DNA of 64,000 nucleotides from Candidatus Poribacteria bacterium (GCA_965208325.1 OZ242326.1:1952001-2016000), one strand, 5' to 3'; shown: positions 1,129-63,930, numbered from the stretch's first letter. Program-made: numbers and translations. The notes: generated by a model from the sequence alone, not told the origin.

Positions 1129-1153
1129 GTCGTGATTCGGAGATCGCTCTTAC
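1129..1153 (-). repeat. REP family B copy (consensus on minus strand GTAGGAGCGATCTCCGAATCGCGAC)
   Basis: gtcgtgattcggagatcgctcttac. The family recurs near 15681, 18677, 19021, 19285, 21126, 21577, 27197, 27686, 28174 and 57013. Confidence 0.7.
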
Positions 1154-1208
1154 AGTGCAGAGGGACGTGTGACGTAACCTGTGTCCAGAGGACAGTGGTC
1201 GTTCGATA

Positions 1209-2606
1209 TTATTTTGCGACGATTACGGTGCCGGTTTTGAAGCTTTCGCCGACCTGCATTTGGTAAACGTAAACGCCGCTTTCGACGAGATTGCCATCCT
1301 CGTCTTCGCCGTTCCATTCTAGCTCGCGCGCGCCCGCATCTCCTATCAACTCTTTGACAAGCACGCCGTTGATGTTGAAAATCAGGACCGTGAATTCTCC
1401 TTCAGCATCTTCAATTGCGCGCGCGGGAAACACAACACGGTTGTAGTCGGCATTGCTCGAAAGCGGGGTAAAAGGATTGGGAAAGGGTTCGCCGAGAATT
1501 CTAAGCGTTTGAGCGGTTTGTTCTGACCTGTTACCGGCTTCGTCAATTGCTTCGACAGCGTAGATAAAAACGCCCACGCCGAGTGCGCGCCGGTCGATAA
1601 ATTCCAACGGCTGATCGGCGGGGATTTTTCCACCACTACCGGTCTCGTCCATCATAGGGGTCAACGGTTCGCCTAACCGCCCAAAAAAGAGTCCGTATTC
1701 CGCAACATCGCGAGTGGGACTACTCTCCCACGTCACCTCAATCCTGCCGCCGACTGTATTAATTGCGACGCCCGCGGGCGGTCGCGGCGCGGCAGTATCC
1801 GGGTGAACGTCAACGAAGATTGGCTCAGAACGGGTGGATTGCAATAGCGGTGTCTTGTAGGCTGAAATTGAGTAACTGTGCGTTCCCGGAGGAACATTCA
1901 CATCTTGAAAAACGGTCGCAGACGGCGTTTCGACATTGATTGGCGGATCAGCGTCACGATAAATGAAATAGCCGTTGACATCCGAGTCAGCCGACTTGTG
2001 CCATTTAATGATTACGTCGTTTTCGCCAGTGGGCTCCGTCTCCACTGTAAACCCTTGTACGGGGGCCGGGGGTACGTTGGGAATAACCAGTAGGGAAAAG
2101 TCATTATTGTTTGATTTGCCGTCTACATTGCCCGGTTTGATAGCTTCGCCGATTGGGCGGTCTTCCTTATTTCTGAGCCGCACGTTAAAATTTACCGCGC
2201 CCGTGGTTTCCGGGGTTCGGCTGTCGAAAACAATTTCGTAATATGCGTTACTCAAATCCGCAATGGGATTGGTGAGAACAATTCGCAGGATATTCCCTGT
2301 GATTTCCGGCACAGCTGCAATTGGCTCGCCGTCTCGCGCCACGAATCGAAAATTCGTCTGCCAGAACATCTGCGCTTGTGCCAACCTGATTTCCATAGTT
2401 CTGATGTCTTCTGTGCCGGGTTCTGCGAGCGACCGATCGATGGTAAGGGCTACAATTAACGTCACCGTGGAACTTGCGGGTGCACGCCCTTGATTGTCTC
2501 CTTCAACGTTTATTTCGCCTCTGGAGTCTACGGCAGCGTTAGCGCTAAGCGCCGCACACAGAAGAAACAAGGTAATTATTCCGATGGTGAAATGGCGTTT
2601 TGTCAC
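1209..2606 (-). CDS. Secreted fibronectin type III repeat protein with C-terminal FlgD-Ig/T9SS-like sorting domain
   Basis: Signal peptide (ANA-AV), two FN3-like units (W..S...DV.GY/Y.I.A.D.AGN.S) and C-terminal PFPNPFTP...IFNINGVLVK...WNGEDEDGNLVESGVYVY. Confidence 0.8.
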   Translation of the reverse strand: MTKRHFTIGIITLFLLCAALSANAAVDSRGEINVEGDNQGRAPASSTVTLIVALTIDRSLAEPGTEDIRTMEIRLAQAQMFWQTNFRFVARDGEPIAAVPEITGNILRIVLTNPIADLSNAYYEIVFDSRTPETTGAVNFNVRLRNKEDRPIGEAIKPGNVDGKSNNNDFSLLVIPNVPPAPVQGFTVETEPTGENDVIIKWHKSADSDVNGYFIYRDADPPINVETPSATVFQDVNVPPGTHSYSISAYKTPLLQSTRSEPIFVDVHPDTAAPRPPAGVAINTVGGRIEVTWESSPTRDVAEYGLFFGRLGEPLTPMMDETGSGGKIPADQPLEFIDRRALGVGVFIYAVEAIDEAGNRSEQTAQTLRILGEPFPNPFTPLSSNADYNRVVFPARAIEDAEGEFTVLIFNINGVLVKELIGDAGARELEWNGEDEDGNLVESGVYVYQMQVGESFKTGTVIVAK

Positions 2607-2622
2607 GTTTTCCCCCTTTTAC

Positions 2623-3576
2623 CTAAAACATCACATTTAGTGAAATGCGCTGCGTCGTGTTGTTCTCAAGATTGCCAGTGAGAATCTGGAAAGCGTAGTC
2701 CAGTTGCAGGCTGAACTCCGAAATGGGAATTCTAGCGCTCCCGCCGACTACGACAGCGCCCGCGCTATTCACACCGCTTGACACCGCATAGCCGCCGCGA
2801 ACGCCTATGGATTGATTGAACCACACTTCCGCACCGGCGTGAATCTGACGATTTCCATCTCGAATACTAATGTCGAGGAGCCCGACGCTGGATTTTAGCG
2901 CTTCACGTAAGGATTCCTGCGCAATGGTCTCTGCAATCGCCTCAAGGCTGTACGCGAATCCGGTGCGCATATTGACAGGAATTTTATCCTCATGTGCCTC
3001 AGAGACGCTTATATCCGCCGGAAGCAGGTTTTCCACCGAAAGCCCCCAACTGAAGCCTAGCACCGGCTTTGCTAGCAAACCGACATCAAATGAAAAAGCA
3101 GAAGCATCGGTTTTCTCGGCAAAATACGGATTGGCGCGAACGGATTCATTTTCTTCATCGAAGTGAGTCCCCAGAGATTTGAAGTTTACGCCAAACGCAA
3201 ATTTCTGTAAGAACGATTTGCCGTAAGAGAGTTTTATAGTCTGTTCATCATAAACTTGAGATTCTTCGCTGAGAATACCGATGCTTAATCCTAGTGTGCC
3301 GGCGGCTGCGAGCGGCAATATGCCGCCGATGTAGTCGTAACGGACAAGTCCTTGGAACCGCTGCGCATACGTCGCACTTAACTGGTATTCATCAATATAG
3401 CCTAGTCCCGCAGCGTTATAATGTGCTGCATTGCCGTCGTCCGCCATGGCTACGAATGCGCCGCCCAACCCCAGCGGGCGTGCTCCCATGCCGATATCGT
3501 TGAATGCAGCGAACGCTAAACCGCCGGGTACAAATAAAACCGCAATTGCGGAGATGACGAGTTTCCATTTTATCAT
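2623..3576 (-). CDS. PorV/PorQ-like (FadL/UPF0164) outer-membrane beta-barrel protein
   Basis: Signal peptide, motif GARPLGLGGAFVAMADD..A.HYNAAGL, amphipathic strands, LDYAF and a terminal Phe. Confidence 0.8.
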   Translation of the reverse strand: MIKWKLVISAIAVLFVPGGLAFAAFNDIGMGARPLGLGGAFVAMADDGNAAHYNAAGLGYIDEYQLSATYAQRFQGLVRYDYIGGILPLAAAGTLGLSIGILSEESQVYDEQTIKLSYGKSFLQKFAFGVNFKSLGTHFDEENESVRANPYFAEKTDASAFSFDVGLLAKPVLGFSWGLSVENLLPADISVSEAHEDKIPVNMRTGFAYSLEAIAETIAQESLREALKSSVGLLDISIRDGNRQIHAGAEVWFNQSIGVRGGYAVSSGVNSAGAVVVGGSARIPISEFSLQLDYAFQILTGNLENNTTQRISLNVMF

Positions 3577-3782
3577 ATTTTTTCCCTTTTAATGTCTTTT
3601 GTGTAAAGCCGAATACCGATAAAACGCGTTGGAAACGTGAATGACGCGTTAAAGGTTAATGCGCATCTTTCCTGGTTAATTCAATGTTGATGTGTTGCCA
3701 TGATTTCTATACGCCCAAAAAATGTCTATTGCGCTCACAATTTGGGCGCTTATTCCCATAGTATACGTTAATCCGGTATTGG

Positions 3783-3844
3783 GCGCGGCAAGATGCCGCG
3801 CATACAAGATCTGACGTTTGTGCGCGGCAAGATGCCGCGCCTAC
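3783..3844 (-). repeat. Two REP-A copies (minus strand GTAG-GCGCGGC-ATCTT-GCCGCGC) downstream of RAYT
   Basis: Copies at 3783-3805 and 3822-3844 in the same orientation with a 16-nt linker. Confidence 0.9.
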
Positions 3845-3856
3845 AGGCCACGCGGT

Positions 3857-4342
3857 CTACTCCAGCTCAAATTTACACCACCAATACGGATAATCCTTTG
3901 CCAATTTGACTAGGCCATTCCGCACCGGGTTGTCATAACAATACCGTATAGTGTCATTCAACGCACCCTCATCCCGAACGGCATGGTCATAATACCCCTT
4001 TTGCCATACGGAACCAGCTTCATCAAGCAGCGCGTTAATCTTCTTCGCTGTGAAACTCTTGAAGGTATGCATGATGCGTGCTAGCGCTTGGTTGCACCCC
4101 AGTTGAACCACCGCATGAATATGGTCAGGCATTATTATAATACATATCCGCTTGATGCGTCCCTCGTTTTCAAGCCATTGGAACGCATCGAAAACGATTT
4201 GTGCGGCGTGGGAGCTCGAGAGTAAACGTCGTCGTTTGAATGTGACGGTTGTCAAAAAGTAATATGCGCCCGATATCGTGTGTCGGCCTTTGCGCAATTG
4301 AGGGTTTTTTCGATTTGGGATTGCGGTTATGGTAGTTGCCAT
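3857..4342 (-). mobile_element. rayT: REP-associated tyrosine transposase (RAYT/TnpA-REP, Y1 HUH family)
   Basis: LRKGR...YYFLTTVT, HUH motif MPDHIH, FKSFTA, WQKGYYDH, catalytic Tyr region YCYDNPVRNGL and DYPYW. Flanked on both sides by GTAG-hairpin REPs. Start placed at ATG 4342 because the longer ORF extends into REPs. Confidence 0.92.
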
Positions 4343-4363
4343 TGAATTATGTGTCGGGTCATT

Positions 4364-4426
4364 GCGCGGCAAGATGCCGCGCCTACGGAACGTGGTGGTG
4401 TACGCGGGGCAAGATGCCACGCCTAC
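4364..4426 (-). repeat. Two REP-A copies upstream of RAYT
   Basis: Copies at 4364-4386 and 4404-4426 with a 17-nt linker, in the same orientation as the downstream pair. Confidence 0.9.
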
Positions 4427-4538
4427 AAGGCTGAGGTTTGTGCTGATAAAACGCGTTGGAATCGTGAATGACGCGTTTAAAGTATATATTTTGTTGCACG
4501 ATTGGGACAGTCCTTTCGTTTCAGAAATCGAAAAAATG

Positions 4539-4568
4539 TTGACATGTACCGCAGGAGGTTTATAAAAT
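4539..4568 (+). promoter_or_regulatory. Putative sigma70 promoter for the 4677 gene
   Basis: TTGACA at 4539-4544 followed 16-18 nt later by TATAAA/TAAAAT. Confidence 0.5.
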
Positions 4569-4676
4569 AACGGCAGTTGTCGGTCTGGAATCCTCAGCCT
4601 TGAATTTTATACGCAAACCGATTGTTTATTCAAAGGGTCAGCATAGCAAGGTTGTTGGCGACAAAAAGGATTTCGC

Positions 4677-5642
4677 ATGATATTAATCAGCACACAAAAC
4701 GGTATCTACGGCTGGGATGAATCCAGCCAAACTCTTAGCCGCTATGCCCTAGAAGGCAAGGACATCCGCCAAGTTGCCGCTACGCTCGACGGAACGCTAA
4801 TTGCTTACGATGCCGAAGGGGCGATCTGGACTAGCAGCAACCGGGGAAAATCCTGGGATCGAATTGCGGACTCCCCTATAAACGAGGAGATTACCGTGCT
4901 CTTCGTTCACCCGATCGACGACGACATTTATTTTGGTACGGAACCGCCCAAGATCTACCGTTACAACTGTACCGATCAAGACTGGGAATTAGTAACAGAT
5001 TTACGGACGCTCGAAACCTCTAAATCTTGGTACACCCCTTGGGGCGGTCCACCCGCCGTGCGGAGCGCCGCGCCAGCGTACAGGGATGGACTCTACCTAA
5101 ATATTCACGTTGGCGGTGTTTTGCGAACTCTGGACCGCGGCGCAACGTGGCAACCGACAAATGACGGGCTCGAATTAGACGTTCATGAAGTTGCTACGTG
5201 CCGTGAACGTGAGCATGCACTATACACGGCGACTGCAGACGGCTTTTATCTGAGCGAGGATGGCGGTGCATCGTGGAAAGCACGCAATAATGGATTAGCG
5301 ATCCGCTATTCACGCGGCATTGCCATCCACCCAGACCAACCGGAGACCATCCTCATTAGCGGCTCGCCAACATCTCCGTGGGGTTGGCGCACCCATGGGA
5401 AACGGTTTTCCCTTTTCCGCAGCACTGATGACGGAGCACATTGGAAGCAAGTGTCCCACGGGTTTCCCGAAGAGAGCGATTCGGAAATCGACACGCACGG
5501 CATCGCATTCTCCCGAGAAAGTTCCGACCAGGTTCTGTGCGGTGTTCGCTCAGGCGAACTCTATGCTAGCAGCGACGCAGGTGAGTCTTGGTCAACTGTA
5601 GCTGCCAACCTGCCCTCCATACGGAGTTTATCCGCCCTTTAA
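4677..5642 (+). CDS. BNR/Asp-box beta-propeller protein (sialidase/xyloglucanase-like fold)
   Basis: Repeated S/TxDxGxS/TW Asp boxes. AAGGA RBS present and no signal peptide. Confidence 0.8.
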   Translation: MILISTQNGIYGWDESSQTLSRYALEGKDIRQVAATLDGTLIAYDAEGAIWTSSNRGKSWDRIADSPINEEITVLFVHPIDDDIYFGTEPPKIYRYNCTDQDWELVTDLRTLETSKSWYTPWGGPPAVRSAAPAYRDGLYLNIHVGGVLRTLDRGATWQPTNDGLELDVHEVATCREREHALYTATADGFYLSEDGGASWKARNNGLAIRYSRGIAIHPDQPETILISGSPTSPWGWRTHGKRFSLFRSTDDGAHWKQVSHGFPEESDSEIDTHGIAFSRESSDQVLCGVRSGELYASSDAGESWSTVAANLPSIRSLSAL

Positions 5643-6802: not shown

Positions 6803-6828
6803 TGATTTTCTCCAATTGACAGTCACAC

Positions 6829-7146
6829 GCGCGGCAAGATGCCGCGCCTACGAGGTGTGGGGCGGTGCCATTCGCGCGGCAGGATGCCGCGCCTACGGGG
6901 TGTGGGGCGGTGCCATTCGCGCGGCAACATGCCGGGACTACAGCGTGTGGTGTGGTAAGCAAGGCGCGATGTCACCCCGGCAACGTGTGCTGCCACACGC
7001 ACGGCAAGATGCCGCGCCTACAGGGTGTGGCGCGGTGCCAAACGCGCGGCAAGATGCCGCGCCTACGAGGTGTGGTGTGGTAAGCAAGGCGCGATGTCAC
7101 CCCCGAAACGTGTGCTGCCAAACGCGCGGCAAGATGCCGCGCCTAC
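6829..7146 (-). repeat. REP-A direct-repeat array, 6 copies
   Basis: gcgcggcaagatgccgcgcctac variants separated by related 22-nt and about 57-nt linkers. Confidence 0.9.
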
Positions 7147-7170
7147 AGAATACGGTGGTGCAATTTTTGC

Positions 7171-9030: not shown

Positions 9031-9190
9031 GTGTCGCTCCCGTCTGCTAATTAGGAAACAACATCGAAGCAATGAAAGGCTCTCTAATTGAAGCGGAATA
9101 GCGGCGGAGTGAGTTGCCATACCGATTTGCTAGTGGGTTTATGTAGGTTTCTGGCAAATGATGAATATTTCGTTTAGAATTAAGCAATGC

Positions 9191-9442
9191 GCGCGGCAAG
9201 ATGCACCGCCTACAGGGCCTGAGATTTGTGCGCGGCAAGATGCCCGCTTCCAGGACGTGGTGCCGCACGCAGCGAAAGATGCCGCGCTTACAGGGCCTGA
9301 GGTTTGTGCGCGGCAAGATGCCACGCCTACAGGACGTGGTGCCGCACGCAGCGAAAGATGCCGCGCCTACGGACGTGGTGTACACGCGGCTAGATGCACC
9401 GCCTACCAAGGTGGTGTACACGCGGCTAGATGCACCGCCTAC
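9191..9442 (-). repeat. REP-A direct-repeat array, 7 degenerate copies
   Basis: Period of about 36-40 bp with alternating linkers agggcctgagrtttgt and aggacgtggtgccgcac. Confidence 0.88.
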
Positions 9443-11452: not shown

Positions 11453-11698
11453 CGGATTAAATTTATTTACGATTTACTCGAAGTGTAGATGTTGCCAACG
11501 CGGGAATGCGCTTTTGCCGCCAAGCAACTGGATTAAAAATTTGGAATTGAAACGGGGAGATACGGCGGGACCGAAAGCCGGTTTGAATAATGGGTGAAAA
11601 AGCCGTTCTTGGACGTTGGAGTTGCTAAAATTTAAGAGATTCTATCGTGCTCCCAATTCGGTCGTTTGATTCCACCAAGTACATTATTCCAGCATTGA

Positions 11699-11881
11699 GC
11701 GGGGCAAGATGCCCCGCCTACAAGATGTCATGGCGAACGCGCGGCAAGATGCCGCGCCTACAAGATGCCGCAGCGCACGCGGAGTAAGATGCCTCGCCTA
11801 CAAGATGTCATGGCAAACGCGCGGCAAGATGCCGCGCCTACAGGACGTGGTGCCGCACGCGCGGCAAGATGCCGCGCCTAC
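11699..11881 (-). repeat. REP-A direct-repeat array, 5 copies at exact 40-bp period
   Basis: 23-bp REP plus 17-nt linkers. Includes the compensatory stem variant gcggggc-aagat-gccccgc. Confidence 0.9.
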
Positions 11882-11953
11882 AAGATGGCACGGCGCACGC
11901 GGGGCGGACACGTTTAGATAACGCGACCTTCACCAAGCTTGGTGATTTAGAAT

Positions 11954-15083: not shown

Positions 15084-15345
15084 TATTGATTTCTCCGTTG
15101 TGATGAATTGAAGACTATTACAGATTCGTTAGCGATTTTGCGATTTTCGCAGCATGGTTTCAAATATTATTTCGGCAGGACCGTAGAAAAATGTATGTCA
15201 ATATATTTTTCAAAATGCCCGACAACGTTAGGAGATTACCGCACTTAATCGGCTTAATGTTCATTATATCAAATATGCATTTGAGCGTCGAGAAAAATAT
15301 TGCGGCGAAATCGTGTTGAAACGTGGCAAGAATCTGCAGGCGCAC

Positions 15346-16615
15346 GCGGGGCAAGATGCCCCGCACACGGAGGGTAGCGACGTTCTATATGCCTGCCGCC
15401 CCGCGGGGGCTATAGGGCAGGTTTTTGATGTGTGAGGGCGGCTGGTTGTCGGGCTGAATGAAATATGCAATTGGAATGGAAAAAACAAGAGGATGGTTGG
15501 GGAATAGCGGCGGAGTTGGCGATTGGTAATGCATTGGGGATGGGTGAGGTTTTAAAAGCGTTGGGTTTCGCTACGTTCATTATATTTTGGACGTCGTTAG
15601 GCTTCCGAAGCGCAATGTAAGATTGTACGATATTTGGTGAAATCCGCTCTACCCAACCTACAAGAGCAACGAGTGCGGTGGTCGTGATTCGGAGATTGGT
15701 CCGACAGATACAGGCGATTGGAGGTTGAGGTGAAGACTATCGCCCTCCCTATTCGGTCGGTTGATCGTTGGGTTTCGCTACGTTCATTAGATTTTGGACG
15801 TCGTTAGGCTTCCGAAGCGCAATGTAAGATTGTACGATATTTGGTGAAATCCGCTCTACCCAACCTACAAGAGCTCCAGCAATGAGCGGGGCAAGATGCC
15901 CCGCCTACGGAGGGTGGCGACGTTCTATATGCCTGCCGCCCCGCGGGGGCTATAGGGCAGGTTTTTGATGTGTGAGGGCGGCTGGTTGTCGGGCTGAATG
16001 AATTATGCAATTTGGGATGCAAAAAACAAGAGGATTGTTGGGGAATAGCGGCGGAGTTGGCGATTGGTAATGCATTTGGGATGGGTGAGGTTTTAAAAGC
16101 GTTGGGTTTCGCTACGTTCAATTAGATTTTGGACGTCGTTAGGCTTCCGAAGCGCAATGTGAAATTGTACGTTATTTGGTGAAATCCGCTCTACCCAACC
16201 TACAAGAGCTGTGATTTTTGTGATTAAATGACAGGCTTTTGTGATTAAATGATGGGCTATGATTGATTTTAGTCATTTCGGTACATAATATACACAAAGA
16301 AGTGATTTACAATCGAGGCTAGGAAGCCTCTCCCACACACCGATGTGTCGATGCACAATGTTTGATAATCGAGCTTGATAGGGGCGCGGGAGGTTTTCAA
16401 GGCAGAAGACTGTAGGAAGACTATCGCCCTCCCTATTCGGTCGGTTGATCCCTCCTTATTCGGTCGGTTGATCGTTGGGTTTCGCTACATTCATTAGATT
16501 TTGGACGTCGTTAGGCTTCCGAAGCGCAATGTGAAATTGTACGTTATTTGGTGAAATCCGCTCTACCCAACCTACAAGAGCTCCAGCAATGGGCGGGGCA
16601 AGATGCCCCGCCTAC
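15346..16615. repeat. Composite multi-family REP mosaic (about 540-bp duplication; families A, G, D x4, B, F)
   Basis: A-type copies at 15346, 15886 and 16593. Split-REP D copies at 15560, 15767, 16101 and 16474. No credible CDS. Confidence 0.88.
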
Positions 16616-16738
16616 AGGATGTAGTGGCTCACTGGTGCTGTAAAACATGAATATACGAACAAGTTCTAGGATTTACGCTGCGAACCATCCCCGATGGTGA
16701 GCTTGGAATAAAATGTCCCGACAGGAAAGAATTTATGC

Positions 16739-18235: not shown

Positions 18236-18637
18236 CGGTCGGGAAATACCTAAATTTCCCGGTACTGCTGCACAATCTTTCAGTATAATCTGTATCGCCA
18301 CATCCCTGCCAAAATTCTAAAGTTTATTCTGCATTCATAACTAGATAGTTGGAAAATCGCCGATTTGGAAATCGGCGCCGCAAGGCAACCTTTCCGCTAG
18401 TCCGTGTAAAACCCGTCCGCACATTGTTTATCCCCTATTGGATTTGATGTCCTGCCTGAAACGCCAACCCGATGCATTATTTAAAGATGATCTTCGCGTA
18501 TGCTTCCGGACACCGGATGTCCAATGCGCAATTTCGGAATTGCGATGTCTCTGCGTCACACCCATTTTTGGTCGTTTGATTGGGATGTAAAAAACAGGAG
18601 GGATGTTGGGGATTGAGCGGGGCGGATTGCAATTAAA

Positions 18638-19349
18638 AAACCGAGTTTTGAAGAAAAAACTCGGTTTCAAATAGGGGTCGCGATTCGGAGATTGCTCCTA
18701 CAGGGGCGATAGTTTTCTCCGGTTTTAATCTTGTCTTGATTCCCGACGCAAGCCGACCTACAAGAACTTTGCGGACGGCACACGGAGTGTGCCTGCTACT
18801 TTAGCGCGGCAAGATGCCGCGCCTACAAAGGAAATGGATGTGAGTGAAGCAAGATGCCGCGCCTACAAAGGAAATGGATGTGAGTGAAGCAAGATGCCGC
18901 GCCTACAAAGGAAATGGATGTGAGTGAAGCAAGGTGGAGCGGATACGGGGGAAGAAGACGGTTGAGATGCGGCGAATTTTGAAGAAACCGTTTGAAGAAA
19001 AAACTCGGTTTCAAATAGGGGTTGCGATTCGGAGATTGCTCCTACAGGGGCGATAGTTTTCTCCGGTTTTAATCTTGTCTTGATTCCCGACGCAAGCCGA
19101 CCTACAAGAACTTTGCGGACGGCACACGGAGTGTGCCTGCTACTTTAGCGCGGCAAGATGCCGCGCCTACAAAGGAAATGGATGTGAGTGAAGCAAGATG
19201 GAGCGGATACGGGGGAAGAAGACGGTTGAGATGCGGCGAATTTTGAAGAAACCGTTTGAAGAAAAAACTCGGTTTCAAATAGGGGTCGCGATTCGGAGAT
19301 TGCTCCTACGGCGGGTGGGTTTTGGATGAATCCGCTCTGCCCAACTTAC
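18638..19349. repeat. Composite REP mosaic (E-B-J-C-A units)
   Basis: Order: aaaccgagttttgaagaaaaaactcggttt (E), B, tcccgacgcaagccgacctac (J), acggcacacggagtgtgcctgctac (C), A. The unit is repeated about 2.5 times and contains internal 40-bp A repeats. Confidence 0.88.
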
Positions 19350-19639
19350 ACGAGCTCGCAAGTGCAGTGATTTAGATTGACGCGTACCTGCCCATTTGAT
19401 ATGCTATAATCTTATGTGAACACGTGAAAACCGGTGCATGCCGCATCATTCGCATCGCACCGTGGAAGCGGTTCAACAGTTGCAGCCGCGTCCCGGGCGA
19501 AGATGACAAACTGGGAATTTAGAACCCAAGAAAGATATTGTCCGCCAGCGGCGGCATCTCAATTACATTTGTCAATTCAGGATGCCGCGGCTAGGTTTAG
19601 AACTGAAAGGGGAAGTTCTGATTTTCAGGGGCATTGCGC

Positions 19640-26147: not shown

Positions 26148-26762
26148 GTGACATCGAATGAGAATAAAATTGCCGCAGCGGCGCTTGATACGGAAAAGCA
26201 GATAACAGATCTTTTTATCGCTCAATGTGAGACACCTGTGGATTTAGAGGAGATAAATCTAAGTCGATTAACACCGTTTCAACGTGCGCTATTGGTCACG
26301 GACGGGACAGTTACGCGGTTTCTCGAAGCTTACACCCTTTCGCCGGTCAAGATTGTGCTGCTCAAGCAGGAGATGGAAACCCTACCTGCCAATCACGTGT
26401 GGCTCAAAGCAAAAAAAGGCACAGAGGTAATTCGACGTCAGGTTTCGCTGCAAACGCTGAATTGCACAGCCCAACCGCCGACTATCCATACCTATGCGAC
26501 GTCCCTCATTGTGCTGAGCCGTACTCCGACGATTATCAGAGAAGGTTTAGCACTTCAGAGCGATGGGTTAGGGACGCTGCTGCAGCGAAGCGGCCTGGAA
26601 ACGCGCAGAGATTTACTATGGTGCGGGGTGGAACGCCCGGAAGATCTACCGGCAGGTCTCGCTAATTTGGAGGAAACAGCGTTTCTTACCCGCACGTATC
26701 GCATTGTAGCTGATGGAAAACCGATAATATTGATAAACGAGCGGTTTCCGATGTGTTCCTAA
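26148..26762 (+). CDS. Chorismate pyruvate-lyase/UTRA-fold protein (DUF98-like)
   Basis: FQRALLVTDGTVTRFLEAY, R.V.L, LG.LL....LETRR and RTYRI....P.ILINERFP. Confidence 0.78.
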   Translation: MTSNENKIAAAALDTEKQITDLFIAQCETPVDLEEINLSRLTPFQRALLVTDGTVTRFLEAYTLSPVKIVLLKQEMETLPANHVWLKAKKGTEVIRRQVSLQTLNCTAQPPTIHTYATSLIVLSRTPTIIREGLALQSDGLGTLLQRSGLETRRDLLWCGVERPEDLPAGLANLEETAFLTRTYRIVADGKPIILINERFPMCS

Positions 26763-28573
26763 GGGTGGAAGGGTGGCGATGATGGGTTTGTGTGGTCGAG
26801 GCAATGTACAAAATTAGTCTGAAATGTGATTTGTGTGATTGAAAATCGAGGCTGGGAAGCCTCTCCCACACACCGGTGAGTCGATGCATAATTTTTTATA
26901 ATCGAGGTTGATTGGGGCGCAGGAGGTTTTTAAGGCAGAAGACTGTAGGAAAACTATCGCCCTCCCTATTCGGTCGGTTGAACGTTGGGTTTCGCTCAGT
27001 TGATCCTATTTCGCCGCGTGATTCCACCAATTACGTTACTTCAGCATTGGCGGGGCAAGATGCCCCGCCTACATGGGGTGGGGGCACACGTAGGGCAAGA
27101 TGCCCGCCTTCGGCGTGTGGTGGCGCACACGGGGCAAGGAAAATCTGTGAGTTTAAGAAACCGAGTTTTGAAGAAAAAACTCGGTTTTAAATACGGGTCG
27201 CGATTCGGAGATCGCTCCTACGGCGGGTGAAGGATTGTTGGAAGAATGGAAGGATGGAAGATTGGCGATGATGGGTTTGTGTGGTCGAGGCAATGTACAA
27301 AATTAGTCTGAAATGTGATTTGTGTGATTGAAAATCGAGGCTGGGAAGCCTCTCCCACACACCGGTGAGTTGATGCATAATTTTTGATAATTGAGCTTGA
27401 TTGGGTTGCGGAAGGTTTTTAAGGCAGAAGACTGTAGGAAAACTATCGCCCTCCCTATTCGGTCGGTTGATCGTTGGGTTTCGCTCAGTTGATCCTATTT
27501 CGCCGCGTGATTCCACCAATTACGTTACTTCAGCATTGGCGGGGCAAGATGCCCCGCCTACATGGGGTGGGGGCACACGTAGGGCAAGATGCCCGCCTTC
27601 GGCGTGTGGTGGCGCACACGGGGCAAGGAAAATCTGTGAGTTTAAGAAACCGAGTTTTGAAGAAAAAACTCGGTTTTAAATACGGGTCGCGATTCGGAGA
27701 TCGCTCCTACGGCGGGTGAAGGATTGTTGGAAGAATGGAAGGATGGAAGATTTGCGATGATGGGTTTGTGTGGTCGAGGCAACTTACAAAAATAGTCTGA
27801 ACCGTGATTTGTGTGATTGAAAATCGAGGCTGGGAAGCCTCTCCCACACACCGGTGAGTCGATGCATAATTTTTTATATTCGAGGTTGATTGGGTTGCGG
27901 GAGGTTTTCAAGGCAGAAGACCTTAGGAAAACTATCGCCCTCCCTATTCGGTCGGTTGAACGTTGGGTTTCGCTCAGTTGATCCTATTTCGCCGCGTGAT
28001 TCCACCAATTACGTTACTTCAGCATTGGCGGGGCAAGATGCCCGCCTACATGGGGTGGTGGCACACGTAGGGCAAGATGCCCGCCTTCGGCGTGTGGTGG
28101 CGCACACGGGGCAAGGAAAATCTGTGAGTTTAAGAAACCGAGTTTTGAAGAAAAAACTCGGTTTTAAATACGGGTCGCGATTCGGAGATCGCTCCTACGG
28201 CGGGTGAAGGATTGTTGGAAGAATGGAAGGATGGAAGATTGGCGATGATGGGTTTGTGTGGTCGAGGCAAGGTACAAAATAGTCTGAAATGTGATTTGTG
28301 TGATTTACAATCGAGGCTGGGAAGCCTCTCCCACACACCGGTGAGTCAATACATAATTTTTGATAATCGAGCTTGATTGGGTTGCGGGAGGTTTTTAAGG
28401 CAGAAGACTGTAGGAAAACTATCGCCCTCCCTATTCGGTCGGTTGATCCTCCGCTATTCGGTCGGTTGATCGTTGGGTTTCGCTCTGTGTATATTGACAG
28501 AAGCATCTTTAGAAATGCTGAACGTCAATCGCTGCCTGAACCGTATTGGGATTATTCGCTCTACCCAACCTAC
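26763..28573. repeat. Composite REP mosaic, 489-bp tandem unit in about 3.5 copies
   Basis: Unit order: F (tcgaggctgggaagcctctcccacac), K (actatcgccctccctattcggtcggttga), D left arm, A, A, E, B. Ends with a complete D at 28472-28573. Confidence 0.92.
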
Positions 28574-28758
28574 AAGAGCTTTCAAACAGATTCTAAATAT
28601 TGAAACTCGTTCGTGGTTCGTTATGCCTGATTATAACACGGAGAAGTTTGTAAAATGAAACAAATCGCGGCACTATAGTGAGCTAAGGTATGAGTTTCCG
28701 CTGTGTATTACGAGAATTTTAGGGTTGACTGTGTTATTTTTGCAGCAGGAGGACATTG

Positions 28759-38249: not shown

Positions 38250-38840
38250 CAAACGGTGATAGTGGACGATACACTTGTGTATGGGGGGATTCAGAGCCGT
38301 TCCAGCCCGCAATGGAATTCCGAGAAGAAACTGTGGGAATGGTGGTATTTCGGCCGGCATTTGTACTAGGCGGTCTCCGATGACGGGGAGCATTGGAAAA
38401 AGCCGGCCATGGGGTTGTACGAATTCGGCGGTTCAAGGGACAACAACATCGCATTCGACCCGGAAAATATGGGGCAGGGAATCCCTTTTCACGTTGTGCG
38501 CGACTAGACCGATCCGGATCCGCGGCGCCGTTACAAAGGACTGTTCAACGCTAACGGCCGCCGCCTCGCCGTGTCCCCGGACGGATTTGACTGGAGGCTC
38601 CACGACTCGCCGCCCATCCCCTGCCAAGACGAGTCCCAGTTTACGCATGACATCGAGTCGAGCCAGTTTCTAGCAATGGTCAAGTTGAGTACGGAATGGG
38701 GACGTTCCGTTTGGCTCTCCACCAGTTCCGATTTTAATTCCTTCACCGAACCCCAGCTAATCTTTCACACCGACGAAATTGACCAGGAGAACGGAAGCCG
38801 GCGAGTCCGGAAAATATTCGAAGACCCGGCTTCGGGGTGA
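38250..38840 (+). pseudogene. Fragment of a five-bladed beta-propeller glycoside-hydrolase-like gene with two in-frame TAG stops, truncated by a REP array
   Basis: One frame reads IQSRSSPQWNSEKKLWEWWY...LY*AVSDDGEHWKKPAMGLYEFGGSRDNNI...VVRD*TDPDPRRRYKGL...AVSPDGFDW...DES...GRSVWLSTSSDF. TAG codons at 38367 and 38505. Confidence 0.78.
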
Positions 38841-40825
38841 CGGCACTCGGCGTGGACCTGCTACTTTGAGCGCGGCAAGATGCCGCGCCTACGGTAAGGG
38901 GAAAGGGGACGCGACTACGACAGGGGGTAAAGGGGATTGACGCCGTGACTACGATGGGGGTAAAGGGTTAGAGCCGCAAATACAGTCGGTAAATGCGGGG
39001 AAGGAAGCAACGGATACGGGGTGACGGAACACGGAGTGGGCATGCTACTTTAAGCGCGGCAAGATGCCGCGCCCACGGTAAAGGTAAAGGGGAAAGAGGC
39101 CGTGACTGCAGTAGGGATATGCGGGGGAACAAGCAACGGATACGGGGTGACGGCACACGGCGTGGGCATGCTACTTTGAGCGCGGCAAGATGCCGCGCCT
39201 ACTACAGGGGGTAAAGGGGAAAGACGCCGTGACTACGATAAGGGTAATAGGGAAAGATGCCGCGGATACGACGTGACGGAACACGGAGTGGGCATGCTAC
39301 TTTGAGCGCGGCAAGATGCCGCGCCTACAATAAAGGTAAAGGGGAAAGAGGCCGTGACAACGATGGGGGTAAAGCGGATAGAGGATGCGACTACGACAGG
39401 GGGTAAAGCGGAAAAAGCCGTGACTACGAGGGGGATAAAAGGGAATAAGGCAACGGATACGGTGTGACGGCATACGGGGTGGGAATGTTACTTTGAGCGC
39501 GGCAAGATGCCGCGCCTACGGTAAGGAGAAAGACGCCGTGACTACGAGGGGGGTAAAGGGGAAAGACGCCGCGACTACGATAAGGGTAATAGGGAAAGAT
39601 GCCGCGGATACAGTAGGGATATGCGGGGAGGAAGCAACGGATACGGTGTGACGGCATACGGGGTGGGAATGTTACTTTGAGCGCGGCAAGATGCCGCGCC
39701 TACAATAAAGGTAAAGGGGAAAGACGCCGCGACTACGATAAGGGTAATAGGGAAAGATGCCGCGGATACAGTAGGGATATACGGGGAGGAAGCAACGGAT
39801 ACGACGTGACGGAACACGGAGTGGGCATGCTACTTTAAGCGCGGCAAGATGCCGCGCCTACGGTATAGGTGAAGGGGAAAGAAGCCGCGACTACGACAGG
39901 GGGTAAAGGGGGAAGAGGACGCGAATACAGTAGGAATATCCAGAGGAAAAGGCAACGGCTACGACGAGACGGCACACGGAGTGGGCATGCTACTTTAAGC
40001 GCGGCAAGATGCCGCGCCTACGAGGGGGGTAAAGGGGAAAGATGCCGTGACTACGACAGGGGGTAAAGGGGGAAGAGGACGCGAATACAGTAGGAATATC
40101 CAGGGGAAAAGGCAACGGCTGCGCCGTTGCGGCACACGGAGTGGGAATTCTATTTTGAGCGCGGCAAGATGCCGCGCCTACGGTAAGGTAAAGGGGAAAG
40201 ACGCCGTGACAACGATGGGGGTAAAGCGGATAGAGGATGCGACTACGACAGGGGGTAAAGGGGATAGAGGACGCGAATACAGTAGGTTAATGCGGGGGAA
40301 GAAGCAACGGATACGACGTGACGGCACACGGCGTGGGCATGCTACTCTGAGCGCGGCAAGATGCCGCGACTACGGTAAGGGTGAAGGGGAAGAGGACGTG
40401 ACTACGATGGGGGTAAAAGGGAATGAGGACGCGACTACGGTTAGGGTAAAGGGGAAAGACACCGTGACTACGATGGAGGTATAGGGGAAAGAGGACGCGA
40501 ATACAGTAGGTTAATGCGGGGGAAGAAGCAACGGATACGACGTGACGGCACACGGCGTGGGCATGCTACTTTAAGCGCGGCAAGATGCCGCGCCTACGGT
40601 AAGGGTAAAGGGGAAAGATGCCGCGACTACGAAGAGGGTAAATGGGAAAGAGGACGCGACTGCAGTAGGTAAATGCGGGGGAAGTGGCAACGGATACGGG
40701 GTGACGGCCCACGGAGTGTGAATTCTACTTTGAGCGCGGCAAGATGCCGCGCCTACGGTTAGGGTAAAGGGGAAAGAAGCCGCACCTACGACAGGGGTAA
40801 AGGGGAACGAGGCGCGACGACGGTA
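38839..40825. repeat. 2-kb purine-rich REP array: about 12 C-A doublets plus GGGGTAAAGGGGAAA half-REP mini-units
   Basis: gacggcacacggagtgggcatgctac-tttga-gcgcggcaagatgccgcgcctac recurs every 120-225 bp, with about 31-bp ggggtaaaggggaaagacgccgtgactacga units in between. Confidence 0.92.
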
Positions 40826-41008
40826 GAAATATGCGAGGGAAGAGGCAAGGCATAGGATAGGCATCTTGGTGTGGATTCGCCAATTCCTCAACCAAACAGA
40901 TGTTTTTGCGTCTAACACAGACTGAATGTACAAGCATATAAACAGCGTTGAGATATGATATCTTCGTAATCCCATGCATCATTTATTGACCTCCAGAGGA
41001 AACAGGTT

Positions 41009-49258: not shown

Positions 49259-49288
49259 TGGGTGACGGAACAATTCTATGCGTTTAAA

Positions 49289-50181
49289 AAACCGAGTTTT
49301 GAAGAAAAAACTCGGTTTTAAATTGAATAGGTTTTTGTAGGTTCAAAAGCGTTGGGTTTCGCTTCAATCATCGGATTTTCGTACGCGATAAAGTTTACAG
49401 GGCGGTTCGTTTTAATGGGCGATTTTTGGATGAATCCGCTCTACCCAACCTACAAAAACTTGATCCCGGGCTACCGTGTGTGGGTAGTGCGGTTGCACAA
49501 AAAGTTACGGCACACGGAGTGCGCATACTACTTTGCGCGGCAAGATGCCGCGCCTACAATGGGAATGGATGCGGCGCGAGTTTCGGCGAATACCTTGGAA
49601 ATTTGCGGGTTGAGATGGCGCCGGGTTACGACGTGCAGCGGGGGGTCCTGCGATTACGGAAATGGTTACGGCACACCGAGAATATTGAAGAAACCGAGTT
49701 TTGAAGAAAAACTCGGTTTTGAATTTAATAGTTTTTTGTAGGTTGGGTAGAGCGGATTTGGTAATTGATGTGTAGTGTTTTGTGGGCAGTACCTACGTTG
49801 GGATTGATGGGTTAATGTAATAGCGGAGCGAAACCCAACGTTTTTGGAGCGTTGGAATAATAGAACGATAGACACCAAAACGATTGGATAAAGGAAATTC
49901 ATTGAGAGGATTTGGATTCCGGAGCGGTGTGTGGTATTTAGAAGTTCATAGGGTTGCGGGAGGTTTCAAAAGCGTTGGGTTTCGCTTCAATCATCGGATT
50001 TTCGTACGCGATAAAGTTTACAGGGCGGTTCGTTTTAATGGGCGATTTTTGGATGAATCCGCTCTACCCAACCTACAAAAACTTGATCCCGGGCTACCGT
50101 GTGTGGGTAGTGCGGTTGCACAAAAAAGTTACGGCACACGGAGTGTGCCTACTACTTTGCGCGGCAAGATGCCGCGCCTAC
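49289..50181. repeat. Composite REP mosaic (E-D-C-A-E-invertedD-D-C-A)
   Basis: D at 49351 and 49974, inverted D at 49738, and C-A doublets near 49507 and 50131. Confidence 0.88.
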
Positions 50182-50259
50182 AATGGGAATGGATGTGAGC
50201 AATATTTATGCACAATTTTATCTGAAAATTTGATATAATATTTGGTTAAGCCCGATTGT

Positions 50260-55461: not shown

Positions 55462-55719
55462 GGTAGGGTTCCTTCAAGCTAAGGTGTAGGGGCGCGGTGC
55501 TAACATTAAGTCTTGGCGCTCTATATGAATTGTTAATGCTTCGTTTGCTGTTTATTGCGCCAAATTGTTGTGCCAGAATATCGATCTTGACAGCGGTTAA
55601 CGGGTCGGCTATGATATTCGCGAATTGTCCGCTCATTTCTGCCTTGAAAAGAGAATAACACCCCTCCACCCAATTGTCTAGAGATTTTTGGAATACCCGA
55701 TCTTACGCTTAGCGTTAAA

Positions 55720-57037
55720 GAAGCCAAGTTTTGAAGAAAAAACTCGGCTTCAAACAAAGCCCGCGATTCGGAGATGGATGCTGCGGGATACAGCAGTTGT
55801 CTGAACTGTGATTTATTTGATTGAATGGTGGGCTATGATTGTGGGAGCACATAATGATTCGGTGTTGAAGCGTAGGCGGATTGGCTACCGCTTACAACAA
55901 CTCGGACTTCGCCAATTGGTGTTTGGGACAGTGTTCGTGTTGGGTAATCATTTGGGATGGGAGAGGTTTTAAAAGCGTTGGGTTTCGCTCCATTCATCGG
56001 AATTTGCACGCGGTGAGGTTGACGAAGCGATTCGTATTGATGGGCGGTTTTTGGCTGAATACGCTCTACCCAACCTACAAGAACTGTCTGAACTGTGATT
56101 TATTTGATTGAATGATGGGCTATGATTGTGGGAACACATAATGATTCGGTGTTGAAGCGTAGGCGGATTGGCTACCGCTTACAACAACTAGGACTTCGCC
56201 AATTGGTGTTTGGGACTTGTTCGTGTGGGGTAATCATTTGGGATGGGAGAGGTTTCAAAAGCGTTGGGTTTCGCTCCATCCATCGGAGTTTGCACGCGGT
56301 AAGGTTGACGAAGCGATTCGTGTTGATGGGCGGTTTTTGGCTGAATACGCTCTACCCAACCTACAAAAACTGTCTGAACTGTGATTTTTGTGATTGAATG
56401 GTGGGCTATGATTGTGGGAACACATAATGATTCGGTGTTGAAGCGTAGGCGGATTGGCTACCGCTTACAACAACTAGGACTTCGCCAATTGGTGTTTGGG
56501 ACTTGTTCGTGTGGGGTAATCATTTGGGATGGGAGAGGTTTTAAAAGCGTTGGGTTTCGCTCCATTCATCGGAATTTGCACGCGGTGAGGTTGACGAAGC
56601 GATTCGTGTTGATGGGCGGTTTTTGGATGAATCCGCTCTACCCAACCTACAAGAACTGTCTGAACTGTGATTTATTTGATTGAATGATGGGCTATGATTG
56701 TGGGAGCACATAATGATTCGGTGTTGAAGCGTAGGCGGATTGGCTAACGCTTACAACAAATAGGATTGCGTCAATTGGTGTTTGGGACGGTGTTCGTGTT
56801 GGGTAATCATTTGGGATGGGAGAGGTTTCAAAAGCGTTGGGTTTCGCTATATCCATCGGAATTTGCACGCGTTGAGGTTGACGGGGCGATTGGTGTTGAT
56901 GGGCGGTTTTTGGCTGAATCCGCTCTACCCAACCTACAAGAGCTAAATCGCAGAATTTTGCTGCATTTAAGAAACCGAGTTTTGAAGAAAAAAAACTCGG
57001 TTTCAAATAAGGGTCGAGATTTGGAAATCGCTCCTAC
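55720..57037. repeat. Composite REP mosaic, 286-287-bp tandem unit x4 bracketed by E-B modules
   Basis: D at 55977, 56263, 56549 and 56836. Each unit also has gaactgtgatt...gatgggctatgatt and the imperfect hairpin tgttgaagcgtaggc-ggatt-ggctaccgcttacaaca. Confidence 0.92.
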
Positions 57038-57097
57038 AGATGATAGCGGTTCGACAGATTATTGAGAGTTAGCTTGTTGATTTAGAAAGGAACGTGC

Positions 57098-60367: not shown

Positions 60368-60620
60368 GGTACAACACCGATAAGGATTACTGGACATCTT
60401 TCCCAAATAACTCAATGTTGTGGACGGCACGTACAGGCATGAGAGTTTTGACGATTGACAGTTTCCCAAGCCAATCGGTTCGTGGGTTGATGCCATCGGA
60501 CACCGGCATTTTATTGAAAAAGTGGCTATTATTTGTTCTTTGTACCTTTCGCCCCTCTGGGGCTTAATCCGGTAATATTATGGAAAGACATCCACTGATA
60601 AAAGCGGCATTAGCAGGGAT

Positions 60621-61574: not shown

Positions 61575-61635
61575 TCTTGAATTTTAAACCGGTTCCCCCA
61601 GTGGTTTAGCGCTTTGTTTGGGGGATGGGCGAAAT

Positions 61636-62484: not shown

Positions 62485-62588
62485 TTGCGATACTCCTTCA
62501 TGTTGTCGGTATACTCAAACCGAGAGATTATTGACCTGTTCAAAAGTGCAGAATCAATGGGAAAAACGCCGGAATCACCTGAATTCGG

Positions 62589-63383
62589 TCATTCATTTTT
62601 GAAGCCGGCGTCCGCGTATCTTTGGGTTGCGGGTGTCCACTGGCTGTAAAAGGCACGCTGCGCCGGGTTCGGATGCTGCGCCAGGCGTTCAGGAATGAGT
62701 ACCCACTCCGTCAAAACCGGACTTGCGGCGCGGCTATAATAGGTGTGTTGCGTCCGCCTGCCTGCATCGGTTGTCCCAGCGAAACGCGCATGATAGGTGG
62801 CAATATTGTAAAGGATAGCGGTACCTGCGGCACCGCGAATCGGAATTTCGCGATAATCAGCCATCTCGGCTTTGGCATCTTCTGCCGTGGCGTAGGGGTG
62901 GCTATTCGGGACAACGGAGAAACAGGGCGTCTTTTCTGTCACATCCGTCAGGTAGAAGATGCGGCACAGATAGCGGCACTGGTAATCGTGATTTGGATCC
63001 CAGTTATCGCGGGTAAGGTAAGAGTGGTCCTGATGGAAACGCATGGGATTCTTTCCATCGCCGTCCGGCAACTCACGAAAATCGAACTGCGCGAATCGCA
63101 CATCCTCTCCGAGGATTGCTTCTATGAGCGGATACGTGGTCGGATGCTGGACGAAGGCGTCGAGCTGCGGGTGTTCGACGAGGATTTGTCCGTGGTCGTG
63201 AATATCGCGGGTGCCTATTCCCCATTCGTCCGGAATCTGCTGTTGGCTTTCCGCCACAAAACGGTTGAGAAAATCAATTTCATTGGACGTCAGTCCGTCC
63301 GAAATGACCGCATAGTTGTTCCGCTGGAAAAAGTCGAGTATGTCATCGCGTTGATTCGGTGTAAATGAAGGGTGTTCGTGCAT
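62589..63383 (-). CDS. PhyH-family Fe(II)/2OG dioxygenase
   Basis: FHQD, FYLTDV, VVPNSH, AGTAILYN...YH and RR. Confidence 0.87.
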   Translation of the reverse strand: MHEHPSFTPNQRDDILDFFQRNNYAVISDGLTSNEIDFLNRFVAESQQQIPDEWGIGTRDIHDHGQILVEHPQLDAFVQHPTTYPLIEAILGEDVRFAQFDFRELPDGDGKNPMRFHQDHSYLTRDNWDPNHDYQCRYLCRIFYLTDVTEKTPCFSVVPNSHPYATAEDAKAEMADYREIPIRGAAGTAILYNIATYHARFAGTTDAGRRTQHTYYSRAASPVLTEWVLIPERLAQHPNPAQRAFYSQWTPATQRYADAGFKNE

Positions 63384-63500
63384 AATTTATATTTGATTTC
63401 CAATCCGGGGAGGCAGCAGCCGCCAAATTTGTGATAATGTCCGGTAGTTTTAAACGAAATTTAACGATGACGTGGAGTGATTCGCTGTTTCACAGCGAAT

Positions 63501-63930
63501 GCGCGGCAAGATGCCGCGCCTACAAAGGGGGCAAATTCACGAAATATGGTGCCTGTTAGTGGGCGCCTTCTCACACCAAATCATGACAGAAGCAGTCGAT
63601 GTTGCTCATCAATTGCGCGGCAAGATGCCGCGCCTACAAAGGGGGTCAATTCACGAAATATGGTGCCTGTTAGTGGGCACAATCTTACACCAAATCATGA
63701 TAGAAGCAGTCGATGTTTCTCATCAATTGCGCGGCAAGATGCCGCGCCTACAAAGGGGGCAAATTCACGAAATATGGTGCCTGTTAGTGGGCGCATTCTC
63801 ACACCAAATCATGACAGAAGCAGTCGAGGTTGCTCATCAATTGCGCGGCAAGATGCCGCGCCTACAAAGGGGGTCAATTCACGAACTACGGTGTCCGTTA
63901 GTGAGCGAAATCCTACACCAGATTATGATG
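63501..63930 (-). repeat. REP-A tandem array, 114-bp period x4
   Basis: Perfect REP-A at 63501, 63615, 63729 and 63843 with homologous 91-nt linkers. Confidence 0.92.

Follow-up and report, generated by a model that had tools for sequence, protein, structure and literature searches.

Head-to-tail REP hairpins with one-way polarity follow replication-type strand composition, not gene direction, in a Candidatus Poribacteria genome

Repetitive extragenic palindromic sequences (REPs) of Escherichia coli, which form bacterial interspersed mosaic elements (BIMEs), are short GC-rich hairpins with a GTAG/CTAC tetranucleotide at one foot. They occur in hundreds of extragenic copies, mostly as inverted pairs and therefore with no net strand polarity, and the gene of the cognate Y1 HUH enzyme, TnpAREP, is flanked by its own REPs (the ‘REPtron’, as outlined in PMC3333891; PDB 4ER8). 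In Pseudomonas fluorescens SBW25, head-to-tail REP arrays with even spacing, outnumbered by inverted doublets (REPINs), run forward at ~2 Mb and in reverse at ~4 Mb, each ~2 Mb from the origin, so that array direction depends on position (according to the relevant section of Bertels and Rainey 2011, PMC3116915). The IS200/IS605 elements (IS608, ISDra2), which encode a related Y1 HUH enzyme and transpose as single strands at the lagging-strand template, have ends formed by hairpins, with a tetranucleotide that is the cleavage or target site, and, as summarized in PMC3971601 and 10.1101/279083, a genome-wide orientation bias relative to replication. Here, we analyze bases 1,952,001-2,016,000 of a Candidatus Poribacteria genome (G000; one contig of 4,707,648 bases, 49.4% G+C), a stretch of 64,000 nucleotides hereafter called the window, which contains numerous REP hairpins, almost all pointing the same way, and the gene of a REP-associated tyrosine transposase (RAYT). 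The direction of these repeats is clearly linked not to genes but to one DNA strand and to composition of the replication type.

The commonest repeat in the window, REP-A, consists of the core GCGCGGCAAGATGCCGCGC followed by CTAC, that is, a 19-nt perfect hairpin (GCGCGGC-AAGAT-GCCGCGC) with the tetranucleotide at its foot; on the opposite strand, it has the classical REP layout, with 5'-GTAG preceding the palindrome. The stem comprises 7-8 bp (GCGCGGC(A)/(T)GCCGCGC) and the loop 3-5 nt, and 40 or more such hairpins in the window are perfect. The short GC-rich palindrome, the GTAG/CTAC foot, the high copy number and the cognate RAYT flanked by REP-A are all traits of GTAG-type REPs. These repeats are REP hairpins tagged with GTAG/CTAC and accompanied by a RAYT of their own, set among larger REP-bearing repeats (arrays, composite modules and a family of MITEs, miniature transposable elements with inverted repeats). 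A known RNA family was rejected as the identity of the repeats, the window yielding no Rfam match at gathering thresholds.

At ≤3 mismatches, the window contains 42 REP-A copies on the plus strand and none on the minus strand. The other repeats are also one-way: the ACC family (GAATCCGCTCTACCCAACCTAC) has 15 plus copies and 1 minus copy, the GGCACAC hairpin family (CGGCACACGGAGTGTGCC) 6 and 0, the purine-rich 15-mer GGTAAAGGGGAAAGA 17 and 0, the ACTATC family 9 and 0, the GGAAGC family 5 and 0, the AT-rich hairpin CCGAGTTTTGAAGAAAAAACTCGG 12 and 0, and GATTCGGAGATYG 13 and 0 (chance expectation, 0.28). A generic scan for GC-rich hairpins followed by CTAC returned 52 on the plus and 3 on the minus strand, and the same scan for CCAC returned 11 and 4. 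Comparison of the window with itself using BLAST produced 336 same-strand and no opposite-strand repeat pairs at E≤1e-5; relaxing the threshold to E≤1e-3 brings in 12 reciprocal opposite-strand pairs, every one involving the copy at 49733-49759, a 26-nt ACC element (49733-49758) that is the single inverted element in the window. By the first of these comparisons, inverted REP doublets of the REPIN or BIME kind are absent, and the arrays are head-to-tail. The one-way polarity is thus stronger than the initial annotation had proposed, whereas its figure of more than 50 REP-A copies is reached only in the looser, generic scan, and a further family (‘D’) said to have 3 inverted copies out of 17 has no counterpart among the families that we scanned or in the self-comparison. 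Because tandem units make up many of the copies (periods, 40, 45, 114, 160-190, 286 and 489 bp), the independent events are far fewer than the copies. After removal of the REP cores, 11 of 11 arrays have a positive GC skew on the plus strand (0.05-0.43), that is, the linkers are G-rich, as originally described.

The single-contig 4.71-Mb assembly made it feasible to compare REP orientation with skew genome-wide. REP-A is present in 252 copies at ≤3 mismatches (217 plus, 35 minus), strongly clustered at 1.8-2.1 Mb and 4.0-4.7 Mb and mainly located between genes (81 of 102 gene contexts are intergenic under a crude open reading frame (ORF) model); exact REP-A 23-mers including CTAC number 82 on the plus strand and 1 on the minus strand. 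These copies form 77 loci of up to 28 copies, 37 of which are arrays. In the window, REP-A lies in 16 gene contexts, with neighbours in all four arrangements (--, -+, +-, ++), and is on the plus strand in all 16; genome-wide, loci between two plus-strand genes are 20 plus and 6 minus, and those between two minus-strand genes are 22 plus and 5 minus. Genes within 15 kb of REPs are co-oriented with them in 291 cases and anti-oriented in 301. The polarity therefore holds regardless of the direction of neighbouring genes, as had been suggested from the window.

Raw GC skew in G000 is mostly a coding-strand effect of about ±0.05, which we subtracted gene by gene to obtain a residual, transcription-corrected skew. 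The cumulative residual skew has its minimum at 3.10-3.15 Mb, adjoining dnaA (3,122,083-3,122,568), in the region where codon-position-3 skew jumps from -0.155 to +0.071, and a broad maximum from 4.7 Mb through 0 to 0.7 Mb; the replication-type skew resides almost wholly at codon position 3. Around dnaA and the skew minimum (3.12 Mb), the loci on the left side are mostly minus and those on the right side are plus. REP-A direction matches the local residual coding skew at 63 of the 77 loci, an agreement reached by none of 2000 circular shifts that keep the clustering; orientation is accordingly neither random genome-wide nor set by transcription, the two outcomes that would have spoken against a replication-related polarity. 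The same test gives agreement at 59/75 loci for ACC and 92/137 for ACTATC (0/2000 shifts in both cases), 28/34 for GGCACAC (p 0.001), 28/36 for GTAATG and 37/56 for GGAAGC (p 0.017). Single-copy REP-A loci agree in 29 of 40 cases, and loci more than 10 kb away from any REP-A locus agree in 23/26 (GTAATG), 53/81 (ACTATC) and 11/14 (GGCACAC) cases.

In a strict gene set (1753 ORFs of ≥250 aa without repeated 14-mers), skew oriented by the REPs declines from 0.031 at 0-5 kb to 0.013 at 40-100 kb, and the decay of the signal, over roughly 100 kb, resembles the autocorrelation of the skew itself. Near REPs, genes of both strands show a shift towards G on the strand that carries CTAC (+0.076 and -0.028; baseline, ±0.054). 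We considered and rejected an artefact of repeats inside called ORFs, given that the signal persists in the strict set and sits at codon position 3. A second genome, G038, from another family of the same order (one contig, 6.63 Mb), carries a GCGGGGC variant as dispersed single copies. In a sample of 80 windows of 20 kb around 97 listed sites, direction and residual skew agree in 44 of all 71 oriented windows, or in 52 of 71 after 400-kb smoothing, and 0-2 of 74 index shifts reach the observed statistic; the direction trend does not switch at dnaA in this genome either. The skew association in G038 is real but weaker than that in G000.

The repeats of the window match 60 other G000 loci, 59 of which are pure in direction, 44 oriented as in the window and 16 in the opposite way; 47 of the 60 agree with skew, and the directions form 18 runs (24.5±3.0 expected). 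The main plus runs span 1.872-2.139 and 4.045-4.513 Mb, and the four multi-locus minus runs all lie in negative skew. The window is inside a domain of ~0.34 Mb (~1.80-2.14 Mb) that belongs to the left arm by position and has the polarity of the right arm; because the window is wholly contained in this single polarity domain, its layout is one-way over 64 kb. Position-3 skew in the domain (+0.054±0.013) is that of the right arm (+0.055, +0.057), compared to -0.049 in the left arm at 2.3-3.1 Mb, and skew switches from negative to positive at 1.80 Mb and back at 2.08-2.14 Mb; skew at codon position 1 in the domain is near zero (+0.008±0.012). Within the domain, the strand with the hairpin-CTAC, G-rich form of the repeats is the strand of leading-strand-type composition.

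Both edges of the domain are synteny breakpoints relative to two congeners, G001 and G003. The flanks of the left edge (1,798,178-1,807,589) are oppositely oriented to each other in both congeners, and a scan of 10 ORFs at this edge, which holds an insertion sequence of the IS3 type and otherwise ordinary genes, revealed no replication-initiator gene. This element (HTH_Tnp_1 + rve; G000 1,801,743-1,802,847, L086 1743-2847) lies in the breakpoint interval and has several 94-95% identical copies in G002, the closest relative of G000 (~92% identical). The right edge is at 2,139,030-2,139,447, with the last plus repeat locus, at 2,139,150, within 300 bases; the assembled contigs of public runs, which are labelled sponge metagenomes, stop at the repeat at this edge (L087 19168-19274), and none bridges it. 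The left-end block of the domain is inverted in G001, where it lies left of dnaA as the G001 map predicts, and keeps its G-rich strand (skew over 7 genes, +0.109 in G000 and +0.063 in G001). Over the middle block (1.873-1.891 Mb), G001 is collinear with G000, and in G003 the block is inverted. Dating the domain with these outgroups rests on 4-7 aligned genes per block with noisy skew, and the middle block (4 genes) gives negative values. Judging from these alignments, the history of the domain is complex and involves more than a single inversion.

The two REP-A-rich zones (1.8-2.1 and 4.0-4.7 Mb) are ~0.9-1.6 Mb from dnaA on opposite arms, which recalls the SBW25 arrays. Mirror symmetry of the REP-rich zones about the origin was rejected as not significant (arm-to-arm r 0.28, equalled by 17% of arbitrary axes). 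The ribosomal protein S10 gene (4,632,802-4,633,083) is on the minus strand of the right arm and would be head-on to replication, a hint of further local rearrangement; the 16S gene at 4,658,802 is on the plus strand.

The RAYT gene is located in a small cassette near the left end of the window:

3857..4420, minus strand: RAYT gene (Pfam PF01797 Y1_Tnp, 46.7 bits; NCBIfam NF047646)
3783..3844, plus strand: two REP-A copies 3' of RAYT (hairpin + ATAC; hairpin + CTAC)
4364..4429, plus strand: two REP-A copies 5' of RAYT, in the same orientation as the downstream pair
3618..3654, plus strand: left copy of a 37-bp direct repeat bracketing the RAYT cassette
4445..4482, plus strand: right copy of the 37-bp direct repeat bracketing the RAYT cassette

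The protein passes the family threshold of the REP_Tyr_transpos model (NF047646; 129.6 bits, cut-off 80) and stays under that of the IS200 model (NF033573; 42.9 bits, cut-off 55). The best relative of solved structure is E. coli TnpAREP (4ER8, E 6.4e-8), and in the alignment, the HUH (HIH) motif PDHIHAV pairs with PEHMHCI and the Tyr...Asn motif RYCYDNP with DYIYINP; for the roles of the catalytic Tyr and of N119, we follow the account available in 10.1101/279083. Since the ORF, in its upstream part, extends into REP copies, translation probably starts at the Met at residue 27 (window position 4342). All four flanking REP-A copies have the hairpin-CTAC orientation on the plus strand, so that the flanks are direct, not inverted, which sets the locus apart from the REPtron as defined in the available description of Nunvar et al. 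2010 (PMC2817692). Among five related RAYT loci that we examined, four have inverted flanks (G006, G014, G032, G005) and one has direct flanks (G022).

The 37-bp repeat that brackets the cassette (~3655-4444, ~790 bp) has just two copies in the whole genome, and the syntenic site in G002 has one copy and lacks the cassette; the length of the duplication is unexpected for a Y1 HUH transposase. The sole RAYT homologue of G002 is 59% identical and located elsewhere. The single G002 copy of the 37-bp sequence, at the same small hairpin site (L089 ~2700-4790), is split by a 2-kb element with inverted ends and two DUF1670 proteins, a 95.5% identical copy of which is found in G000 at 2,033,875-2,035,878. 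Among 41 related genomes, the REP-A pattern is present in 26 and RAYT homologues in 28. G000 also has a second, divergent Y1 transposase-like gene (3,321,944-3,322,279; L002), which scores 74.4 bits with NF047646, below the cut-off of 80, and adjoins ORFs of 324 and 323 aa. The 3.3-Mb bin near this gene contains 42-43 one-way copies of two 12-mers, resembling one long array, possibly a CRISPR, and a similar one-way array of 42 copies is present in the 4.0-Mb bin.

Compared with the systems outlined above, G000 shares with E. coli the form of the hairpin and its tetranucleotide foot, the hundreds of extragenic copies and a gene for a Y1 HUH enzyme with its own REPs on both sides, with a protein that matches the RAYT model and 4ER8. 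The differences are that G000 copies are head-to-tail and one-way, that RAYT is flanked by direct REP copies, and that the stem is a perfect palindrome without the mismatch that E. coli TnpAREP needs according to the PMC3333891 account. As in SBW25, there are evenly spaced head-to-tail arrays with position-dependent direction; unlike what is reported for SBW25 in the section cited above, the one-way layout is the rule in G000 and spans other families, and the two large zones on opposite arms share an absolute direction. With IS200/IS605, G000 has in common a related Y1 HUH enzyme and hairpin ends with a tetranucleotide; its protein, however, scores below the IS200 model cut-off, its units are 23-40 nt long and carry no gene, and their direction follows skew domains rather than the present map of origin and terminus. 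The GTAG-23 REPs of Thermomicrobium roseum (Di Nocera et al. 2013, PMC3733652) differ from the G000 family in sequence and phylum, going by the accessible text of that survey of GTAG repeats, which has no mention of ‘leading’ or ‘lagging’, leaving strand polarity unexamined there. Our search of the literature on REP/RAYT and the lagging strand, strand bias, GC skew or Poribacteria REPs, in which subscription journals were not covered, retrieved no report of REP polarity relative to replication, except for the remark on the SBW25 arrays. G000 is of the GTAG-REP/RAYT kind and departs from it in its head-to-tail arrays, direct RAYT-flanking REPs and chromosome-scale polarity domains.

The arrays of the window lie among ordinary genes on both strands (glycerate kinase, an FGE-sulfatase-domain protein, DUF6785, a giant Ig-repeat protein and a tricorn-like protease):

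6815..7150, plus strand: head-to-tail REP-A array, 6 copies, period 40-45 nt; 1 copy at the G002 site
9177..9442, plus strand: REP-A array, 5 copies
11685..11881, plus strand: REP-A array, 5 copies, period 40 nt; 1 degenerate copy at the G002 site
15330..16640, plus strand: composite repeats (ACC long hairpin ending in CTAC; ACTATC and GGAAGC modules; REP-A), GC skew 0.22; G002 site of 203-341 bp
18600..19360, plus strand: composite repeats (GGCACAC hairpin, REP-A, AT-rich hairpin)
26760..28600, plus strand: tandem array of 489-bp units with one REP-A copy per unit, GC skew 0.23
38800..40860, plus strand: purine-rich, non-coding 2-kb array of 160-190-bp units with GGCACAC hairpin and REP-A, and of ~32-nt units ending in GACTACGA
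49270..50200, plus strand: composite repeats including the sole inverted element of the window (49733-49758)
55700..57080, plus strand: tandem array of 286-bp units, ACC family
63477..63940, plus strand: tandem array of 114-bp units with REP-A in each; empty site in G002 (9-bp interval)

The array at 38800-40860 is extremely purine-rich on the plus strand (GC skew 0.35, or 0.43 without the REP cores; AT skew 0.38), and its ~32-nt units ending in GACTACGA sit between REP-A copies. G-quadruplex motifs were rejected as a feature of the G-rich arrays, with just 1 canonical motif in the window.

Comparison with G002 allows the most recent additions to be traced. The two genomes are collinear over 1.778-2.164 Mb, with 114 of 114 genes on the same strand and a position-3 distance of 0.14; at ≤2 mismatches, G002 has 11 REP-A copies and G000 has 212. 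At shared sites (6 of 26 anchored loci), the G002 REPs have the same direction and are shorter or degenerate, and G002 lacks a minus copy at every one of these loci. Ten REP-A loci have an exactly empty G002 site (interval of -21 to +9 bp). The largest of these inserts in the domain, a 965-bp array of 17 copies, is also missing from the G001 and G003 sites and is therefore a gain in the G000 lineage. The 10 G000-specific inserts are a mixed set, in which three share MITE-family ends, three are extra units in ACTATC-type composite repeats and one follows CTAC; some of the insertions lie at unique sites where no other repeat is adjacent, all on the plus strand. The MITE family has terminal inverted repeats (TTAGAGCCTGTTTGAA... 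and ...TTCAAACAGGTTCTTA), a length of 155-940 bp, TTA/TAA flanks and 0-10 internal REP-A copies, always on the same strand; copies in or near the domain, outside the window, are at 2,041,193, 2,101,388 and 2,139,167.

The explanation that we tentatively favor, at slightly less than an even chance, is that the repeats spread in a strand-specific and strand-preserving manner, with a direction originally fixed with respect to replication and subsequently transported by inversions. Under this scenario, copies would be made from, and reinserted into, one DNA strand by single-strand HUH chemistry combined with tandem array growth, so that new copies would take on the direction of those next to them. 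In each region, the direction of the founders would have been set relative to replication, as for IS200/IS605, with the hairpin-CTAC strand on the G-rich strand, which would be the lagging-strand template. Later inversions would move repeats and skew together, producing the mosaic of domains, and in the G000 lineage, the RAYT cassette would have been gained and the GCGCGGC subtype expanded. We infer the single-strand mechanism, its link to the fork and the identity of the substrate strand. The more specific version, that RAYT-driven REP spread is strand-specific in vivo, with hairpin-CTAC on the lagging-strand template, and that arrays and domains record past replication direction and mark inversions, we regard as possible, although doubtful.

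Several observations weigh against this explanation. Map position (origin at 3.12 Mb, terminus at 0.0-0.7 Mb) fits the direction of only 42 of the 77 REP-A loci, and on the left arm outside the domain, REP-A loci are 10 plus and 11 minus. Thus, the replication-strand dependence postulated in the initial annotation holds as an association with skew and fails as a link to the present origin/terminus map, and the switch proposed there as a check is seen as a minus-to-plus change around dnaA rather than as a clean genome-wide switch. When whole runs are counted, just 9 of the 18 agree with skew, a small effective sample dominated by the two large plus zones, so that a few large domains carry the evidence connecting orientation and skew; moreover, skew reflects replication history only by proxy, and the genes come from the crude ORF model. 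ACC loci with no REP-A locus within 10 kb agree in just 21/39 cases, and in the pure windows of G038, agreement is 41/65 (Fisher p 0.076). All 10 loci that are empty in G002 are plus, five in the domain and five on the right arm, and exact GCGCGGC-type copies, the youngest, are 51 plus and 0 minus in the domain, 28 and 1 on the right arm, and 3 and 0 on the rest of the left arm. Because the domain is fully collinear with G002, it was already placed and oriented when these gains happened, and recent plus gains on both arms are a misfit with coupling to the direction of today's forks as read from the map. The MITE family (17 paired copies, 13 plus and 4 minus) agrees with skew at 14 of 17 copies, although another type of enzyme presumably moves it. 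Finally, E. coli TnpAREP is described in PMC3333891, in the part bearing on binding and cleavage, as binding the 5'-GTAG form and cutting within CTAC on the inverted copy; with hairpin-CTAC on the G-rich side in G000, the sign is opposite to that of a naive IS608 analogy.

A strong rival is pure local inheritance, which we consider possible as well, without regarding it as probable. Under this alternative, direction was never set by replication; each zone had few founders, and later copies arose by tandem amplification, unequal crossing-over, template switching or insertion into oriented repeats, whereas the link to skew results from the two large zones happening to lie in positive skew and from co-inversion of repeats and skew. 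The strong clustering of REP-A, with multicopy arrays at nearly half of the loci, is what such a process would produce, as are the growth of G000 arrays at seeds that G002 has in the same direction and the 3 of 10 G000-specific inserts that are extra units inside ACTATC-type composite repeats. The plus orientation of the youngest copies on both arms, the run-level agreement and the failure of the simple replichore test also speak for it. Local copying alone, however, does not readily account for an agreement with skew that no clustering-preserving shift reaches, for the agreement of singletons and of families far from REP-A, for the confinement of all four multi-locus minus runs to negative skew, for the same trend in G038 with its dispersed single copies, or for the all-plus gains at unique sites without an adjacent repeat.

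It appears unlikely that the G-rich CTAC repeats are selected polar signals, comparable to FtsK-orienting or Chi-like skewed motifs, with wrong-way copies removed by selection. Such signals would fit the G-richness of all 11 arrays on one strand, a polarity common to repeat types that are probably moved by different enzymes, and its independence of genes; yet, the whole domain is wrong-way for its map position and new copies there keep the direction of the domain, and a 20-fold difference in copy number between 92%-identical genomes fits a mobile burst better than a conserved signal.

Less likely still is rightward replication of the domain, owing to a local origin or to a block that flips frequently, such that repeats would follow present forks everywhere. 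The full right-arm strength of its position-3 skew, the plus orientation of the new gains in it and the skew switches at 1.80 Mb and 2.08-2.14 Mb are in line with this possibility. Bacteria are not known to have extra origins. Rightward replication is made less likely by the lack of a replication-initiator gene in the 10 ORFs scanned at the left edge and by the agreement of the G000 and G002 assemblies on the arrangement, and with a position-3 divergence of just 0.14 since the split of these genomes, the skew could be a relic.

That the repeats are transcription-linked elements (terminators or mRNA-stabilising hairpins) with a direction following genes, as might be thought from the mostly downstream location of REPs in other bacteria (noted in the accessible text of PMC3733652), is very hard to maintain and was rejected in view of the same direction in ++ and -- contexts, the near-equal numbers of co-oriented and anti-oriented neighbouring genes, and the single repeat direction in the window, where genes are on the minus strand at 1-15 kb and on the plus strand at 17-50 kb.

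The way REPs multiply is still debated: a RAYT-type enzyme cuts single strands in vitro, and the replication fork has been proposed merely as a possible source of such strands. G000 is a natural test case: its REPs are one-way and head-to-tail, with a direction that follows strand composition rather than genes, and a near-identical relative, in which copies are 20-fold fewer and the corresponding site lacks RAYT, allows filled sites to be compared with empty ones. The shared direction of the newest copies on the two arms is a concrete puzzle that separates fork-coupled models from models of strand-preserving local copying. If direction is set at the fork, the orientation of REPs would serve as an inexpensive indicator of inversions and of past replication direction where the skew of a genome is scrambled. 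If RAYT-driven spread is indeed strand-specific, these repeats would be genomic evidence of REP/RAYT transposition at the fork, similar to that of IS200/IS605.

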